A stretch of 64,000 bases of DNA from Escherichia phage vB_EcoM-Pr121LW. Positions 1 to 50,798 of this stretch are shown here, in pieces. The notes under the pieces were generated by a model. That model did not search any database. It saw only the letters and a list, made by a program, of their open reading frames with translations, and was not told where the DNA came from. The DNA lies in sequence record MH752840.1; one strand, 5' to 3'. Within the stretch, counting starts at the first letter, position 1; each line of letters begins with the position of its first letter. The position numbers and the translations under genes were made by a program.

Positions 1-528
1 GACAAGTTTTTCTCCTCTTTGTCAAGTGCTGCATGAAAAATTTACAATCTTGTATGGTAGCATTTTTGCGGCCCTGTTTACATTCAGCGATGTATGTATA
101 AGCCTTGTTGTGTGGGCGTTTAGACGTCTAGACGGTCAGAAGTCCGCAGGTCAATATCTAATCTATCGGCTGCTAACTATATCCCACACAAATAGTAAGA
201 AATATAATTGTTATATGCGTAAACAGTAACTCATGTTATCAATCCCTGTATGTATCGCCAGTGGTGCGCATAATGGGTATTATGTTAAATTGCCCGTAAT
301 GATAACAGTTCTCACAATGATAGGTATTCTCATTCACTCCCACAAGAGAGGTTGCAAATGTTGTGCCATTGTGTGAACGGCCTCGCCTATTAATTTGCCT
401 CACTGCCCCGATATTTGAGAATTGTTATAAGAATGAGAAGTATTCCCATTTCGTCCGCCTGGCAGCACTCCTGTAGGACAAGCACAAAATCGTGGCATAA
501 CTGGACCTGTTCAGATATTTCTGGCTGG

Positions 529-1047
529 CTCTTCAGGTCTGTGTGGGAAAAGCCAACCTCTCCGGCGGCGGGGAGGGGGTCAATTAAAAAATTTACGGGG
601 TGTATGAAGCGCTCTTCAGGCAAGGCATGTATTATTGGATTAAACCCTCTTCAGGCAATGATATTTGTGGGCGTGATATTTGCTGGAAAGCTAGATATGA
701 CGGGACTCTCGGCGGGGCAGGGGTAGTACAGACAGGGAAAATATGGAGGATGTTGGTGGGTAAATTGATCAAGCAGGCAGGGTATGGAATATGTTACAGG
801 TATGTTAAATATGGAGGGTGAATATCTGTAGGATTTATGTGTAAAATCAAAGACTTAAGTGGTGTTGTGGTATTTTCTATAAATAATTCAAGTTTAATAG
901 GGAATATTTGTCAGAAAGGCAGGTTCAGGTTATCTAAAGTAGTATTTCAGATGCATGTTTACAGAAGCAGGTAACCCCCCTCCCCCTTCGGCTACCATTC
1001 ACCTTTTCCTCTGACTGGTACTTAAACACTTATTCAGACTCTTCAGG
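529..1047. repeat. Four copies of CTCTTCAGG (529-537, 612-620, 647-655, 1039-1047) plus G/C homopolymer-rich tracts in a ~1.4 kb region with no convincing ORF
   Basis: Direct reading; the 9-mer recurs four times; GGGGAGGGGG-like tract at 569-578 and CCCCCCTCCCCC at 977-988. Confidence 0.4.
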
Positions 1048-1397
1048 TTATCACCCATATATCATATGGCAGTGACTGGTGTCCTCCGGCCCCTCTTTCG
1101 TCACCCGTCCGCTTCGCCATGCTAATGCCATAGCCAAATGTTCGGTTGTTCACCCTGTTCACTCAGGTGTATCTCCATACCCCTTCAAACCGAAGAGAAC
1201 AGAAAACCCGAATTACTCGGTAAAAGAAAAGAGAAGAACTTAATTTTATCAGGATAGGCAAGAATGTCAAGGCATGACTGCTCACTAAACAAGCAAACAG
1301 TCATGTGTGGGAGGTAAGTGATTGTGGTGGTAGGAAATTTAGTTGAAAGATGTGTTATAGGTGCTTCCAGCACTTTAGCCTGGCAGCTAATTGTGTG

Positions 1398-1613
1398 TCA
1401 GTCCAGCGGTTCATCCTCTACTTCACTGAAATCGATGTTCATGGTCTCCTCCCAACCATCAATCTCAGCACCAGAGTAGAGATCTTTAGGACTTACTCCC
1501 AAAGCCTCAGCAACAGAGTCCATATTTAACACCTCTGGCAGGTATGATTCATCGAATTCAAGGTAAATCAGGCCACGAGTGTTGTCAGCTCCACCAAATA
1601 TTTCTATCTTCAT
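1398..1613 (-). CDS. hypothetical small acidic protein (start taken at internal MKIEIF; track ORF extends to 1679)
   Basis: ORF on minus strand; MKIEI N-terminus and acidic C-terminus like neighbouring small-protein family. Confidence 0.35.
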   Translation of the reverse strand: MKIEIFGGADNTRGLIYLEFDESYLPEVLNMDSVAEALGVSPKDLYSGAEIDGWEETMNIDFSEVEDEPLD

Positions 1614-2996: not shown

Positions 2997-3302
2997 TTAT
3001 TCTACAGAGCGTTTGAACAGAATGTCTGCCTCGGACATGTGCTCAACCTCTTCTTCGATTTTAGCTCGACGTTTTTCAGCCTCATATCGAATATCGAACT
3101 CGGTAGCCACCAGAGATTTGATGAATTTAGGAGAATACAGATGATCCTGCTTCTCAACAAGAATGATATCCTTGATGGCATCTTTCAGATCTTTAATCTG
3201 AAGTTGGAGTTCCACCAGTTCTTCGATTGTTTTGCGAAGGCGATCACGCTCTGCAGTGTCAGAAGGAAGAGAGGTGAACAGTTCAACTTTAGATTTAGCC
3301 AT
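2997..3302 (-). CDS. hypothetical coiled-coil protein
   Basis: ORF; charged helical composition; followed by terminator. Confidence 0.4.
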   Translation of the reverse strand: MAKSKVELFTSLPSDTAERDRLRKTIEELVELQLQIKDLKDAIKDIILVEKQDHLYSPKFIKSLVATEFDIRYEAEKRRAKIEEEVEHMSEADILFKRSVE

Positions 3303-17242: not shown

Positions 17243-19366
17243 TCAGCAACCACAACTTCCGTAGTGCTTAACCCGTTCTATAACTTCCGCTTGCTTACCT
17301 TTATTGTAAGGACGGGAGTTTGGACTAGACAGGTACCCGGATACACGTCTGATCACACTGATCGTTCCCTCTTCATGGTTTCCACACTCTGGGCATACAA
17401 AGCCTTTAGCTGTTGCACTGAACTCACCAGAAAAACCACACTTGAGACATTTATCCACAGGCTGGTTGATACCAAAATACATAATGTGTTTATATCCGAA
17501 ATCAACAAGAGCTTCCAAAGCATCTAAGTTGTTTTTCAGATTTGGTGTCTCTACGTATCCGATGTTGCCACCAGAGGAGATCATAGCAAAACCTTCCTCA
17601 TACTCCCACTTATCAAAAGGAGAGCTATTGATCCATACTGGCTGATGGAAACTGTTGGTGAGATATTCATGCTCGTGCTTCAACACTTCAGGATATTCAC
17701 GATCCAGACAGGTTGCAGCTTTATAGCATAGACTCTCAGAAGGGGTGCCGTACAAGCTAAACGCTAGTCTACTTTCCTTCTTGTATCGCTCACAAACATC
17801 TCTCATGTGCTGGAGTATTCCAAGAGCTAAAGCCTTGTCACCCTCCCTGCCCAAAATCTGACAGGTTTCATACACACCAATATACCCAATACTGATGGAA
17901 GCGTACCCGTCATAGAAGAGTTTATCAATACTCTCTTCAGGATCCAGGCGAGCAAGAGCGCCTTCACACCACATGATTGGGTTCTGCCCTGCCTTTGTTC
18001 CTTTTAGACGGTTAACCCTTACAAGGTGAGCCTCGTATGCAAGATCCAGGTATTCGTCAAGAACTGCAAAGAAATCAACACCTTCCGTTTTAGCTTTTGC
18101 CGCAATCATTGGCAGGTTAAGGCTAACAACGCCTAAGTTAAATCTACCAAGGTATTTCTCCTCGCCTGTTTCCAAGTCATTGTATTTGCTAAGAAAACTC
18201 CGGCAACCCATGCTCGTTACTTTACCATCTGTCGAGCCTGTCACTTTACGATTTAGTGGAACAGAAACAAAGTCAGGATAAATCCGCTCTGCAGAGCATT
18301 CCAGAGCTAATCGTTTCAAATCATAGTTAGGATCTCCAGGGTTCATGTTGACACCCTCTTCTAGGAAGAACAGCACTTTAGGGAACACAGGTGTGATACG
18401 TTCTTCACCAAGACCCATTTTGTGGACTTTCAAGTAGTTTTTGGTAATCATTCTACCAAAGACCGAGGTATCCAGTCCTAAACTTAATGTGATGAATGGA
18501 GTTTGCCCGTTGACAGAGGTTAACGTATTGATTTGATAGAGCAAAGTCTGCATGCTGTCAAATACGTCTTTATCTGTCATTTGCATTGCAACAGTCTCAG
18601 CATCTGGCAACCAATGTTCCTGGCAAAATTTAAGGTTCTTCTCATAGGTTGCTTCAGCATACTGTGCCAGATAATGATCAATATGGCTCATAGTCTGACC
18701 TCCATATTGAGCACTAGCTACTGCACTAGAGATTTGGCTAAGGATTGTTGTTGCAACCCCTATTGACTTCGGCTTACTGACATGGGCGTTGCCAATGTTG
18801 AATCCGTTTTCCAACATATCTGGATAATTTACCAAACAACAGTTTGTTAACGGACTGATCAAGTAGTCAAGATCATGCACATGGATGAAGCCTTTATTGT
18901 GCTCTTCTGAGACACGGTCTGGCAGGATCTGTGTTGATGCAAGGTGTTTGCTAAGGATGCCTGCAAGCAGGTCACGATGAGTGTGTACATGATTGGTAGG
19001 CTTATTTGCGTTTTCTTTTGTAAATTCATCACAAGTGCGATCCAAGAAGCCACTAATATCTGCAAGCAGTTTTCCACCTGCCTCTCTGTTATTATCTCTT
19101 GTCTGCCTATACTGGATGTATTCTCTGGCTGCGCATTTTAAACCCATATCCATAAGAGCGTCTTCAACAAGGATATGGATATTTTTTACAGAGATCGTGC
19201 ACTGGTCGGTTGGTAGATTGTTAGCAACAACTTCATTAACCGCGCAGGCGATCCGGTAAGCTTCTTCTTCAGTATGTCCAGACTCAAGTAAGGCGGACTC
19301 TGCCGCCTTGATCACCTTAATTCCGTTATAGACCTCTTCTCTACCGTCCCGTTTTACAACTTTCAC
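17243..19366 (-). CDS. nrdD: anaerobic ribonucleoside-triphosphate reductase (class III)
   Basis: 707 aa; C-terminal glycyl-radical region RRVSGYL and C-terminal Cys cluster. Confidence 0.9.
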   Translation of the reverse strand: MKVVKRDGREEVYNGIKVIKAAESALLESGHTEEEAYRIACAVNEVVANNLPTDQCTISVKNIHILVEDALMDMGLKCAAREYIQYRQTRDNNREAGGKLLADISGFLDRTCDEFTKENANKPTNHVHTHRDLLAGILSKHLASTQILPDRVSEEHNKGFIHVHDLDYLISPLTNCCLVNYPDMLENGFNIGNAHVSKPKSIGVATTILSQISSAVASAQYGGQTMSHIDHYLAQYAEATYEKNLKFCQEHWLPDAETVAMQMTDKDVFDSMQTLLYQINTLTSVNGQTPFITLSLGLDTSVFGRMITKNYLKVHKMGLGEERITPVFPKVLFFLEEGVNMNPGDPNYDLKRLALECSAERIYPDFVSVPLNRKVTGSTDGKVTSMGCRSFLSKYNDLETGEEKYLGRFNLGVVSLNLPMIAAKAKTEGVDFFAVLDEYLDLAYEAHLVRVNRLKGTKAGQNPIMWCEGALARLDPEESIDKLFYDGYASISIGYIGVYETCQILGREGDKALALGILQHMRDVCERYKKESRLAFSLYGTPSESLCYKAATCLDREYPEVLKHEHEYLTNSFHQPVWINSSPFDKWEYEEGFAMISSGGNIGYVETPNLKNNLDALEALVDFGYKHIMYFGINQPVDKCLKCGFSGEFSATAKGFVCPECGNHEEGTISVIRRVSGYLSSPNSRPYNKGKQAEVIERVKHYGSCGC

Positions 19367-42833: not shown

Positions 42834-42932
42834 GCTAGGTAAGCCCTTTGGCAAGGGCGAGGATTTTTAATCCTGAAAATAGACGAGGTAGTCGTTGAAT
42901 ACATAGGTGGTTCGATTCCACCACCTAGCACC
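42834..42932 (+). tRNA. atypical tRNA-like gene (anticodon loop TTTTTAA, possibly Lys-TTT), ~30-nt extra region, no full CCA
   Basis: Acceptor GCTAGGT/ACCTAGC, D-arm GCCC-TTTGGCAA-GGGC, T-arm GGTGG-TTCGATT-CCACC are clean; anticodon stem and variable region are irregular. Confidence 0.35.
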
Positions 42933-44281: not shown

Positions 44282-44706
44282 TGTCTAAGATTTACGGACC
44301 GTGTTCTGAAAAGCAGAAGATGATCCTCGAAAACGATGCAGATATTTTGGTAATCGGCGGTGCCGCAGGGTCTGGCAAGTCGTTCCTCTTGCAGTTGATG
44401 CCGCTTAAAATTATCGATGACCCCCACAGCTCTGTGGTTATGTTCCGAAGAACAACCCCACAGTTGGAAGGTGAGGGTGGACTATGGCCTAAAGCAGTAG
44501 CTATTTATAGCGATCTGCCTGAAAACATTAAGCCAAAGTTCAGAGAGAAGGATCATAAGTTCATTTTTCCACGGTTTGATCCGAACACTGGCAAGTGGGA
44601 TAGAAGCAAAAAGGGAGCTGTTGTAAAATACTGCCACATGGAGTATGTACAAGATAAGCTTAACCATCAAGGGCTTGAGTACACCATGGTTTGCTTCGAT
44701 GAGGGT
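44281..44706 (+). CDS. terminase large subunit, exon 1 (ATPase N-terminal part)
   Basis: Walker A GGAAGSGKS and Walker B MVCFDE; frame closes with TAA right at the intron start. Confidence 0.7.
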
Positions 44707-45026
44707 TAATTTGTAGCTCTCGTAAAACCTCCCTAATTGCGGGGAAATCTTTACTATTAATACCACCAACCTGTCATGGTAACATGATAGAGGCTTCGAA
44801 GAGAGATCGAAGGTATGGTAACAGTGTGTTAATTTAGATAATCCGCAGCGAAGCATCCGAGAGGATGAACGTTCAACGACTAGTCGAAAGACGTAGAATC
44901 AAGCGATTCGAAACGGGAGGGTAAGCGGTTGTTGTCGCTTATAAGATATAGTCTGGTCTGCATGGAGACATGCAGCTGCCTGAAAAATGGCGGGGCAAGA
45001 CTAGCGACCTTGCCCGAACATAGACG
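44707..45026 (+). ncRNA. group I self-splicing intron (ORF-less) in the terminase large subunit gene; boundaries approximate
   Basis: Conserved elements in order: P AATTGCGGGGAAA (~44737), Q AATCCGCAGC (~44842), R GTTCAACGACTAGTC (~44870), S AAGATATAGTC (~44940); intron begins GGT|TAATT like T4 td; no ORF inside. Confidence 0.65.
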
Positions 45027-50765: not shown

Positions 50766-50798
50766 GGGGAGGGGGTTCTCCCCCTCCCCTTTTTATTT
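50766..50798 (+). terminator. rho-independent terminator
   Basis: Perfect 10-bp stem GGGGAGGGGG/CCCCCTCCCC with TTCT loop then TTTTT. Confidence 0.8.

Follow-up and report, generated by a model that had tools for sequence, protein, structure and literature searches.

The DNA considered here is a 64,000-nucleotide stretch (the 'window') of sequence record MH752840.1, 64 kb out of the ~137-kb genome of Escherichia phage vB_EcoM-Pr121LW. The subject is its first 1397 nucleotides, which hold one copy of a direct terminal repeat (DTR), a variable spacer and an ultraconserved non-coding block. All 121 phage records that match window positions 1-1400, at 88-97% identity, belong to the genus Vequintavirus (rV5-like myoviruses of E. 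coli with genomes of ~137 kb), and a blastn 'distant' search of 50,697 phage records gave no DNA-level match to these positions outside that genus. Genes lie on the minus strand from 1398 to ~38 kb and on the plus strand thereafter, and a tRNA cluster and a group I intron are also found within the window. The region is the meeting point of the two long transcription units of the genome; in the description of rV5 it is drawn as a 'non-coding' box at which units 82-163 and 10-1-238-164 converge (PMC3606486). The features discussed below are as follows (a slash within a sequence marks a cut position).

1-459, no strand: one copy of the DTR, recognised by homology to the Gotham repeat; base 1 is the physical DNA end.
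1-48, plus strand: outer cut-site sequence with an inward promoter-like element, TTGTCA (19-24), 18 nt, TACAAT (43-48).
459/460 (450-470), no strand: inner DTR boundary, in reverse complement ...GTGCTGCCA/GGCGGACGAA.
460-500, no strand: indel hot spot inside the repeat boundary, with ~30-50-nt insertions of CTCCTGTAGG-like units in 5/10 genomes and diversity of up to 0.14.
529-537, 612-620 and 647-655, minus strand: three oriented copies of CCTGAAGAG (read on the plus strand as CTCTTCAGG), each kept in 9-10/10 genomes.
557-576 (tract to 579), plus strand: G/C hairpin CCTCTCCG-GCGG-CGGGGAGG, carrying G4AG5 at 570-579.
640-960, no strand: extreme strand asymmetry, G-rich on the plus strand and C-rich/G-poor on the minus strand, with a second GGCGGGGCAGGGG box at 711-723.
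975-1357, no strand: ultraconserved block, with an identity of 99% or more in 58 and of 95-99% in 59 of 117 records.
986-975, minus strand: G5AG6 tract GGGGGAGGGGGG at the 3' edge of the block, followed by TTTCTTGTATCTTTAATTT in 15/17 genomes.
987-1239, minus strand: untranslated, G-rich, near-invariant candidate RNA of ~250-260 nt, including the fourth CCTGAAGAG copy at 1039-1047.
1243-1270, minus strand: predicted sigma-70 promoter, TTGACA (1270-1265), 16 nt, TGaTAAAAT (1251-1243), matching at 11/12 positions with an extended -10.
1273-1305, no strand: palindrome CATGACTG-N17-CAGTCATG, directly 5' of the -35 hexamer and nearly invariant in 17 genomes.
1398-1613, minus strand: first real gene (71 amino acids, aa) and last gene of the long minus-strand unit, intact in 10/10 genomes and annotated in most records.

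Positions 1-459 align without gaps, at ~94% identity, with the annotated 459-bp repeat_region of phage vB_EcoM_Gotham, which stands at both ends of that record in two identical copies; base 1 of the window aligns with the record's last base. Moreover, six linear records (Gotham, EdH4, HdK5, YN3, ECP2303 and Aya) each start or end exactly at base 1. The repeat length has been given as 459 bp for Vequintavirus (PMC7471380) and as 458 bp for EdH4 and HdK5 (PMC6563267). As judged from these alignments, 1-459 is one copy of the DTR and base 1 is a physical end of the DNA. A preliminary description of this region had named a genome end as one of several options, and it is this option that the repeat and the six linear records demonstrate. 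The gene-free stretch is also longer than had been described, continuing for ~1.2 kb past base 1 in circularly permuted records; in rV5 (DQ832317) the gap runs from 104013 to 106618, that is 2.6 kb from ORF (open reading frame) 163 to ORF 164.

The same anatomy is seen in two sister genera, whose junctions were located with the help of the published KPP-1 repeat coordinates and 32 kb of PVP-SE1. In KPP-1, a Klebsiella phage of the genus Mydovirus, a 514-bp DTR was mapped by coverage and PhageTerm to 116316-116829 of MT438396 (PMC9862379). This repeat, too, lies at a convergent junction, where only two small ORFs are annotated across ~1.8 kb, and PVP-SE1, a Salmonella phage of the genus Seunavirus, has a gene-free gap of 2.27 kb at its own convergent junction. 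A search of both junctions with the Vequintavirus alignment (nhmmer) gave no match, and short motifs alone are held in common; the flanking genes of KPP-1 likewise showed no homology to the window by tblastn. The inner boundary occurs as gtgcta/GACGGACA at the start of the KPP-1 DTR (MT438396, 116316) and in PVP-SE1, and across the three genera it reads gtgct(gcc)a/GRCGGACRA. The outer boundary reads GTAAATTT...CTTGACARRGAG...TTGTS/ across the same genera, and the terminal 45 nt, in reverse complement, align with the DTR ends of KPP-1 and PVP-SE1. These common boundary sequences independently confirm base 1 and 459/460 as cut positions, and the concatemer cut sites are thereby shown, on sequence comparison, to be base 1 and the 459/460 junction. 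Just inside the outer boundary, the inward element at 19-48 scored 10/12 in a promoter scan; its TTGTCA and TACAAT hexamers and their 18-nt spacing are constant in the three genera, while the spacer sequence differs, and it is treated here as a putative promoter.

A gene for a DsbA-like double-stranded-DNA-binding protein or transcriptional regulator (101 aa, 2997-3302, minus strand), whose product shows an identity of 99% or more in 114 records of the genus, was tried as an anchor for synteny between the genera. It failed as such, since the Seunavirus homologue lies ~30 kb from the genome end and its junction, and synteny at the terminus thus differs between genera. A protein-anchored search of IMG/VR returned 3 loci.

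The preliminary description had found only short and overlapping ORFs here, and the ORF list indeed runs from 31 to 103 aa only. Each ORF of at least 30 aa was followed through a 10-genome alignment, in which most of those in 1-1397 are disrupted by frameshifts or stops in relatives; indels of 1, 2, 15, 22 and 30-52 nt are frequent. Three ORFs are intact in 10/10 genomes, namely 233-376 (plus, 47 aa), 1043-1162 (minus, 39 aa) and 1079-1243 (plus, 54 aa), and these could be read as small unannotated protein genes, all the more as the 39-aa ORF has a GGAG nine nt 5' of its GTG start and ORFs in the region are annotated in Mangalyan, MiataMamis and NHEP1. However, codon position 3 holds only 6/15, 1/5 and 2/5 of their variable sites, respectively, which is no excess, as against 12/16 in the neighbouring gene 1398-1613. 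The sole polymorphic spot of the 39-aa ORF alters the residue (F/I, G/S), and its other codons are without synonymous change; a 62-aa ORF contains the promoter; nine ORFs of the region gave no Pfam match; and the careful annotations of rV5, FV3, ECP26 and the Danish set leave the region empty. Hidden genes are therefore very improbable, and the up to eight 'hypothetical proteins' called here in some records are over-annotation. A gene-free gap is likewise present at the convergent junction of FV3 and nomine, and a search of the relatives for a conserved gene spanning the region, the finding that had been named as fatal to the no-gene reading, brought none to light. There is little doubt, then, that the region is a genome end with a terminal repeat and without genes.

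The most conserved part of the region lies next to the last gene. In the 117 records in which the block 975-1357 was compared, the adjacent 383 nt, which are mostly coding, are never at least 99% identical; they are 95-99% identical in 60, 90-95% in 52 and 80-90% in 5. Pairwise diversity is 0-0.02 across the block; the adjacent genes have values of 0.03-0.10, and other parts of the spacer reach 0.19. In a scan of a 6.4-kb alignment with 375-nt windows the block is the least diverse position of all (0.013 versus a median of 0.086). No copy was found outside the genus in the same 50,697 phage records, or in 5,426 E. coli genomes (blastn), so that the block is not a captured host sequence or a mimic of one. 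A 15-mer of the block gave 40 matches in IMG/VR, of which only two, both already known, carry the block.

Most of the block is occupied by the candidate RNA. Only 10 positions vary within 982-1236 in the 17 genomes used for comparisons inside the block and of the promoter, and the minus strand is G-rich there (G 23-40%, C 13-19%). The minus strand folds better than its shuffles (z = -2.17, 4/200), whereas the plus strand does not (z = +1.0). Among 14 distinct sequences, the 10 variable positions fall into 6 that are unpaired, 2 one-sided changes that keep a pair and 2 singletons that break one; compensatory changes number 0, the block being too invariant for this comparison to have power. A search of 1-2400 against Rfam 15 gave nothing at the gathering threshold and, with E values allowed up to 5, four chance-level matches, none of them in 975-1357.

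Directly upstream of the candidate RNA is the predicted sigma-70 promoter, pointing outward to the DNA end. In the most divergent genome, the IMG/VR locus L014, the spacer is 18 nt long and of different sequence, while both hexamers and the TG are kept and identity resumes a few bases past the expected start; one genome has TTAACA. An outward promoter-like element with TG also follows the last gene in each of the three genera, and it is the most widely conserved piece of the spacer in the sister genera. Constant hexamers around a varying spacer are the pattern that would be expected of a working promoter, and a real outward promoter with an untranslated transcript is considered reasonably likely; the block would then probably make a non-coding RNA. 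The palindrome at 1273-1305 is a putative regulator-binding site. The preliminary description had also offered a promoter cluster and a non-coding RNA locus. Two promoter-like elements whose hexamers and workable spacing are conserved around a changing spacer sequence, and an ultraconserved untranslated unit that is a candidate RNA, agree with these two options, each as a prediction from conservation.

Three smaller features were observed around the promoter. A terminator-like mini-hairpin, CCGAGTAATTCGG followed by GTTTTCTGTT, lies at 1208-1220 (minus), ~16-30 nt past the predicted start, and may represent an attenuator or be no more than a part of the RNA fold. Within 1283-1376, the sense strand is rich in C and poor in G (C/G 4.0) over the 78 nt that follow the last gene's stop codon. 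A small hairpin, GTGCT-TCC-AGCAC (1362-1374), comes before these 78 nt and differs between genomes by 1-2 nt in the length of its loop; 1283-1376 may act as a Rho-type terminator of the long operon, immediately ahead of the conserved promoter.

The block could be the gene of a free-standing, trans-acting regulatory RNA of ~250-260 nt, made on the minus strand from 1270-1243 by the host polymerase, with its place at the genome end being incidental. The G-tract would define its 3' end, or else a Rho-dependent stop in the C-rich stretch followed by trimming to the structured part would do so. The conservation signature of the promoter, the better fold of the minus strand and a conservation above that of the neighbouring genes over exactly the interval from promoter to tract all suit such a gene, as does the downstream 320 nt, the most C-rich and G-poor RNA-sense sequence of the window and of Rho-loading composition. 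Moreover, a block that is specific to the genus, set against an end anatomy common to the subfamily, suits an accessory rather than a core function, and the 5' pyrimidine run UUCUUCUCUUUUCUUUU might pair with purine-rich ribosome-binding sites. However, the candidate has no Rfam family and no covariation, a near-total invariance over 250 nt exceeds what structured RNAs usually need, and no similarity to E. coli hints at a target or mimic. A free regulatory RNA is accordingly regarded as a possible but unlikely account.

The 3' edge of the block is sharp. Conservation collapses directly to the left of the G5AG6 tract, where the sequence has been replaced in some genomes, the window included. 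The lengths of the G-runs vary among genomes (G5AG6, G6AG7, G6AG6 and G5AG4), and TTTCTTG follows G5AG6 in 15/17 genomes, ~260 nt downstream of the promoter, as in motifs of the type of CSB II (conserved sequence block II) of mitochondrial DNA (mtDNA). Indeed, minus-strand GGGGGAGGGGGGTTT is nearly identical to human mtDNA CSB II, GGGGGAGGGGGGGTTTG; at 16-17 nt this match is a lead rather than a test. CSB II halts transcription through an RNA or hybrid G-quadruplex, needs a downstream T-run, and yields an RNA that serves as a replication primer (PMC4176368, PMC3488243, PMC5027508), and its G-run length is polymorphic in mtDNA (PMC5027508).

This likeness brings in a second alternative, an RNA-primed replication origin like mitochondrial LSP-CSB II (LSP, light-strand promoter), ColE1 RNA II or the R-loop origins of T4. 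A promoter would be followed by a G-rich sense sequence and by a stall at the order G-run, A, G-run, T on the non-template strand, and the 3' end of the resulting RNA-DNA hybrid would prime the phage DNA polymerase; the candidate units are 1270 to 975 (minus) and 19-48 to 570 (plus). In its favour are the resemblance of GGGGGAGGGGGGTTT to a sequence that stops transcription and makes a primer (PMC4176368, PMC5027508) and, as in mtDNA (PMC5027508), a G-run of varying length among phages. Each tract is preceded on its 5' side by a G-rich sense strand, a G4-5 A(A) G4-6 tract stands 3' of the inward promoter-like element in three genera, and this is the sole large gene-free region reported for the genome (PMC3606486). 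The authors of the rV5 description also reported a change in GC skew at 104425-105475 (PMC3606486), coordinates that by arithmetic map to about window 986 and to just past base 1. However, those authors ascribed all skew changes to the direction of transcription, and in its polarity the flip at ~965 agrees with converging transcription or a terminus and not with an origin. The resemblance to CSB II extends over 16-17 nt only, hybrid-quadruplex termination is known in the cited work for mitochondrial and T7 polymerases only, the outward unit would fire at a DNA end less than 1 kb away, and the 570 tract is altered in half of the genus. An origin of this kind is somewhat less likely still than a free RNA.

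Between the block and the repeat, the spacer carries the 9-mer that the preliminary description had counted four times. Exact copies of CTCTTCAGG are indeed present at 529, 612, 647 and 1039, all on the plus strand, where ~0.015 would be expected in 1-1397. The whole window holds 8 copies, again all on the plus strand, versus 0.67 expected, and 8 copies were reached in 0/100 shuffles. A fifth non-coding copy lies at 1686 and one with a single mismatch at 1920; the remaining exact copies, at 17933, 24567 and 25434, are Pro-Glu-Glu codons in long minus-strand ORFs, so that non-coding copies are restricted to the terminal 1.9 kb. Those in the spacer stand 70-190 nt from the 459/460 boundary in one orientation; repeated oriented motifs near a cut site are also a mark of pac- and cos-type signals, a likeness that is descriptive only. 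In the sister genera an oriented cluster of CCTGAAG[AT]G is likewise found between the last gene and the DTR, with 4 copies in 380 nt of PVP-SE1 and 0 in 28 kb of its internal genes, and with a similar cluster in KPP-1. The oriented CCTGAAGAG repeats together with the cut site fit a putative packaging signal, in line with the packaging site that had been offered as an option. Two other approaches to the motif were rejected. As a general phage promoter element CCTGAAGAG has no other exact intergenic copy in 64 kb and stands at inconsistent distances from -10-like hexamers, and an IMG/VR scan for two CTCTTCAGG copies 15-45 nt apart was abandoned after at least 120 unrelated loci, chiefly in-frame coding repeats, had been returned. 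Tandem Repeats Finder reported no tandem repeats.

Another short motif, GTRAACAG, was observed around the repeat. It forms an array of five copies in one orientation at 2318-2449 of the reverse complement of rV5 DQ832317, in the 200 nt past base 1 of the circular map, ending ~50 nt before the outer repeat boundary. The 6.4-kb locus has 10 copies versus 0.54 expected, and 4/7 copies in the window fall within its first 1650 nt (74, 219, 1155 and 1638). The array may correspond to the CCTGAAGAG cluster on the opposite side of the repeat.

The G/C tracts of the spacer had been likened to the terminator after the capsid gene, and these tracts are real: GGGGAGGGG stands at 570-578 (plus) and as its complement at 977-985, the window holds 4 copies versus 0.24 expected, and the only others form the hairpin at 50766-50789, to which they had been compared. 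The hairpin at 557-576 folds at -17 to -19 kcal/mol on the plus strand and at -8 to -16 on the minus strand, the plus strand being favoured via G-U pairs; GGGTCAATTAAAAAA follows it on the plus strand, and its minus-strand version contains a C-A mismatch and has UUGGCUUUU as its tail. In all three genera, a G/C hairpin with a G4-5 A(A) G4-6 tract is placed 65-130 nt inside the repeat, and that of PVP-SE1 (-19.8) is followed by TTTT, a proper T-run. In about half of the Vequintavirus genomes the tract at 570 reads GGGGCAGGGGG with a 22-nt insertion. A long-range stem pairing the tracts at 570 and 975 was considered and rejected on account of this alteration.

The stretch at 640-960 has the strongest G/C strand imbalance of the 64 kb, with a GC skew of up to +0.57. 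Its minus strand, read from 960 to 640, has C 21-42% and G 5-13%, with C/G of 2.4-5.0 in 78-nt windows; C/G reaches its maximum for the whole window, 7.0, near 740, as compared with a 99th percentile of 1.7 for the sense strand of genes. In homologous orientation the sign of the skew is the same in KPP-1 (-0.33) and, more weakly, in PVP-SE1 (-0.15). As an untranslated, C-rich and G-poor RNA of at least ~80 nt, the minus strand has the composition of a Rho utilisation (rut) site, and the stretch could be a Rho loading zone for minus-strand read-through, or else the G-rich body of a plus-strand transcript from the repeat. A T4-type late promoter (TATAAATA at 878) was discarded as a candidate, as the motif is not enriched (6 versus 2.6 expected) and has no link to late genes.

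A functionless 460-975 has also to be weighed, in which decayed small early genes and promoter or stem-loop cassettes would have left a mere spacer and the CTCTTCAGG copies would be leftovers of local duplication. Variation within the region is highest here, where indels of 1-50 nt occur and the blocks 460-500, 570-580 and 905-970 have been replaced; the repeat copies share 15-25 nt of flanking similarity, as from local duplication, and the further copies at 1686 and 1920 lie upstream of real small genes. However, the motif cluster with its orientation, and likewise the hairpin, is found again in genera in which the rest of the spacer defies alignment, and islands such as 851-900 are nearly invariant (diversity 0.012). 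The most extreme G/C asymmetry of the window is unexpected under neutral decay, which would moreover leave 975-1357 wholly unexplained. Decay is improbable, and both it and hidden genes are poorly supported.

Taken together, region 1-1397 is probably the non-coding terminal control region of a linear Vequintavirus genome, with an outward non-coding unit. In the proposed scheme, two small convergent non-coding transcription units would lie in the region. The first would read inward from the plus-strand promoter at 19-48 through the repeat to the hairpin and G-tract at 557-579. The second would read outward from the minus-strand promoter at 1270-1243 and, after ~250 nt of G-rich untranslated sequence, reach the GGGGGAGGGGGG-TTT tract (986-975). 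Between the two units would lie the oriented CCTGAAGAG repeats and the 320-nt G/C-asymmetric stretch. The tracts and the skewed stretch would halt both converging streams of transcription before the repeat, and the boundary sequences and oriented repeats would steer cutting by the terminase. The outward unit may act in cis in a manner resembling phiOR at the right end of T7, its RNA ending at the G-tract and priming DNA synthesis via a stable RNA-DNA hybrid; alternatively, the transcribing polymerase could mark the junction for maturation.

Several observations weigh against this scheme. No homologue of the ultraconserved block could be detected in the sister genera, which share the remaining anatomy, and so the block cannot be essential to the shared mechanism of end processing. 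On a linear template, an origin directed at a DNA end at a distance of 975 nt is awkward. The G5AG6 tract lacks a hairpin partner and so is not a canonical intrinsic terminator; the T-run is replaced in the window (TTACCTG) and in Mangalyan (TTACCTGC...); and in the cited work termination of the CSB II type concerns mitochondrial and T7 polymerases rather than that of E. coli. Both promoters are consensus matches backed by their conservation pattern alone, the fold signal is modest (z = -2.17) in a block too invariant for compensatory pairs, and the two readings of 640-960, as a Rho loading zone and as the body of a plus-strand RNA, are incompatible. The searched literature holds no transcriptome, 5'-end, origin-mapping or terminase study of the genus.

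That the block acts in cis, in replication or packaging, rather than as a free regulatory RNA is put forward only tentatively. A cis role, as primer or maturation trigger, is placed slightly ahead of the free RNA, since the G-tract marks precisely where conservation ends and constraint extends to every base; the two remain close, since a genus-specific block is set against a subfamily-wide end anatomy. In its most specific form, the block would be an undescribed phage element, an outward unit of the host polymerase whose RNA ends at a CSB II-like tract, forms a hybrid or quadruplex and serves as replication primer or maturation trigger; this form is doubtful as it stands. In a weaker form, the block may represent a new, genus-wide family of ~250-nt phage regulatory RNAs.

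Some further observations concern the surroundings of the region and the records compared. A second near-invariant non-coding island lies at 2100-2200 (diversity 0.006 in a 7-genome alignment), in the intergenic sequence between a terminator-like hairpin at 2263-2282 and a promoter-like site at 2093-2065 (minus). It contains an inverted repeat (2117-2131 with 2167-2181) and the 11-mer CGCTACGCTCG, which is also found in non-coding DNA across the repeat in KPP-1 (L016, ~4545) and PVP-SE1 (L142, ~18358). Nineteen GenBank records among MG065635-MG065690 bear the title 'Campylobacter phage' and name Campylobacter jejuni as host. In the terminal region their identity to this genus of E. coli phages reaches 96.5%, and they hold the ultraconserved block at 99% identity; they are probably mislabelled or derived from contaminated lysates. 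Elsewhere in the window, the tRNA cluster includes a tRNA-like gene of 99 nt with a four-base anticodon (atcc) at 42834-42932 (ARAGORN; 37 bits with the Rfam tRNA model), which could be a tRNA interrupted by an insertion or intron, or one resembling frameshift suppressors. The group I intron, at 44697-44975 (plus), lies 3' of the cluster and matches the full length of its model (Rfam RF00028, 84 bits).

The analysis places the physical ends of the genome and identifies boundary sequences that are shared by three genera, together with a set of conserved cis elements open to experimental test: two predicted promoters, the hairpin, the oriented repeats and the CSB II-like tract. The rV5-like phages are widely isolated and are used in therapy cocktails and typing sets. 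For annotators, the 'hypothetical proteins' called here are spurious, and for genome engineers, these 1.4 kb are best neither disturbed nor used for insertion without testing.

The region itself is already documented, and its internal anatomy is a new description. The 'non-coding' box of rV5 is the same locus, window 1-1397 being 92% identical to rV5 104011-105431. The rV5 authors expected a bidirectional terminator at this place and found none (PMC3606486). Their description was unaware of the termini, and the papers that define the repeat are silent on the adjoining DNA (PMC6563267, PMC7471380). The block, the promoters, the oriented repeats, the cross-genus boundaries and the anomaly of composition appear in none of the literature searched.

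With respect to termination, the region resembles rut sites in its 320 nt of untranslated RNA sense that are C-rich and G-poor (C/G 2.4-5), past the last gene and the outward unit, and a Rho-type stop would explain why no intrinsic terminator was found in rV5. The likeness is one of composition only, a stop at the G-tract would leave Rho little substrate, and the skew is also readable as a plus-strand RNA. With respect to packaging, repeated terminase-recognition motifs stand beside the cut sites of lambda (the cosB R sites) and of P1 (the pac hexamers). The CCTGAAGAG repeats are alike in that one short motif is present in several copies and one orientation, ~70-200 bp from the cut site, and unlike in their irregular spacing (83, 35 and 392 nt) and in having further copies 1.2-1.5 kb away, upstream of genes.

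The ends of T7, where the promoters phiOL and phiOR come with secondary origins, provide a further comparison. Arrays of short repeats and the phiOR origin were reportedly described in T7 by Dunn and Studier in 1983 and by Chung and Hinkle in 1990. A short direct terminal repeat, adjacent non-coding DNA with short repeats and, just inside the end, a promoter (a predicted one in the present genome) pointing outward into the junction are common to both systems. Unlike those of T7, however, the promoters here are of the host sigma-70 type, no single-subunit polymerase is seen and there is no sequence similarity; moreover, the outward unit lies 800 nt from the repeat and is followed by the G-tract and the strongly skewed stretch. 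Maturation in T7 begins when the polymerase pauses at the concatemer junction, and the DNA that is recognised is located no further than 5% from the ends (PMC3276506); packaging of a T7 phagemid requires an origin, a pac site and the terminal repeat (PMC13236587), and packaging of the T7 type has been predicted for KPP-1 (PMC9862379).

The R-loop origins bear on the proposed primer. ColE1 RNA II and the T4 origins ori(uvsY) and ori(34) comprise a promoter and an untranslated transcript of a few hundred nt that depends on its folding, with G-rich RNA over a C-rich template at the priming point. Promoter, untranslated transcript and G-rich RNA over a C-rich template are all predicted for the outward unit, whereas no RNase H cleavage step or DNA-unwinding element is visible in its sequence and its location at a linear end is different. 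Mitochondrial LSP-CSB II differs in its polymerase, in a T-run that the window copy does not have and in a resemblance that is limited to 16-17 nt and implies no common ancestry; it agrees in having GGGGGAGGGGGG-TTT on the non-template strand 3' of a promoter, with a polymorphic G-run. If the cis role as RNA primer or maturation trigger is correct, the block would provide a new case of end processing coupled to transcription by the host polymerase, and a counterpart in bacterial viruses, near-invariant across >100 genomes, of the mitochondrial LSP-CSB II switch between transcription and replication.

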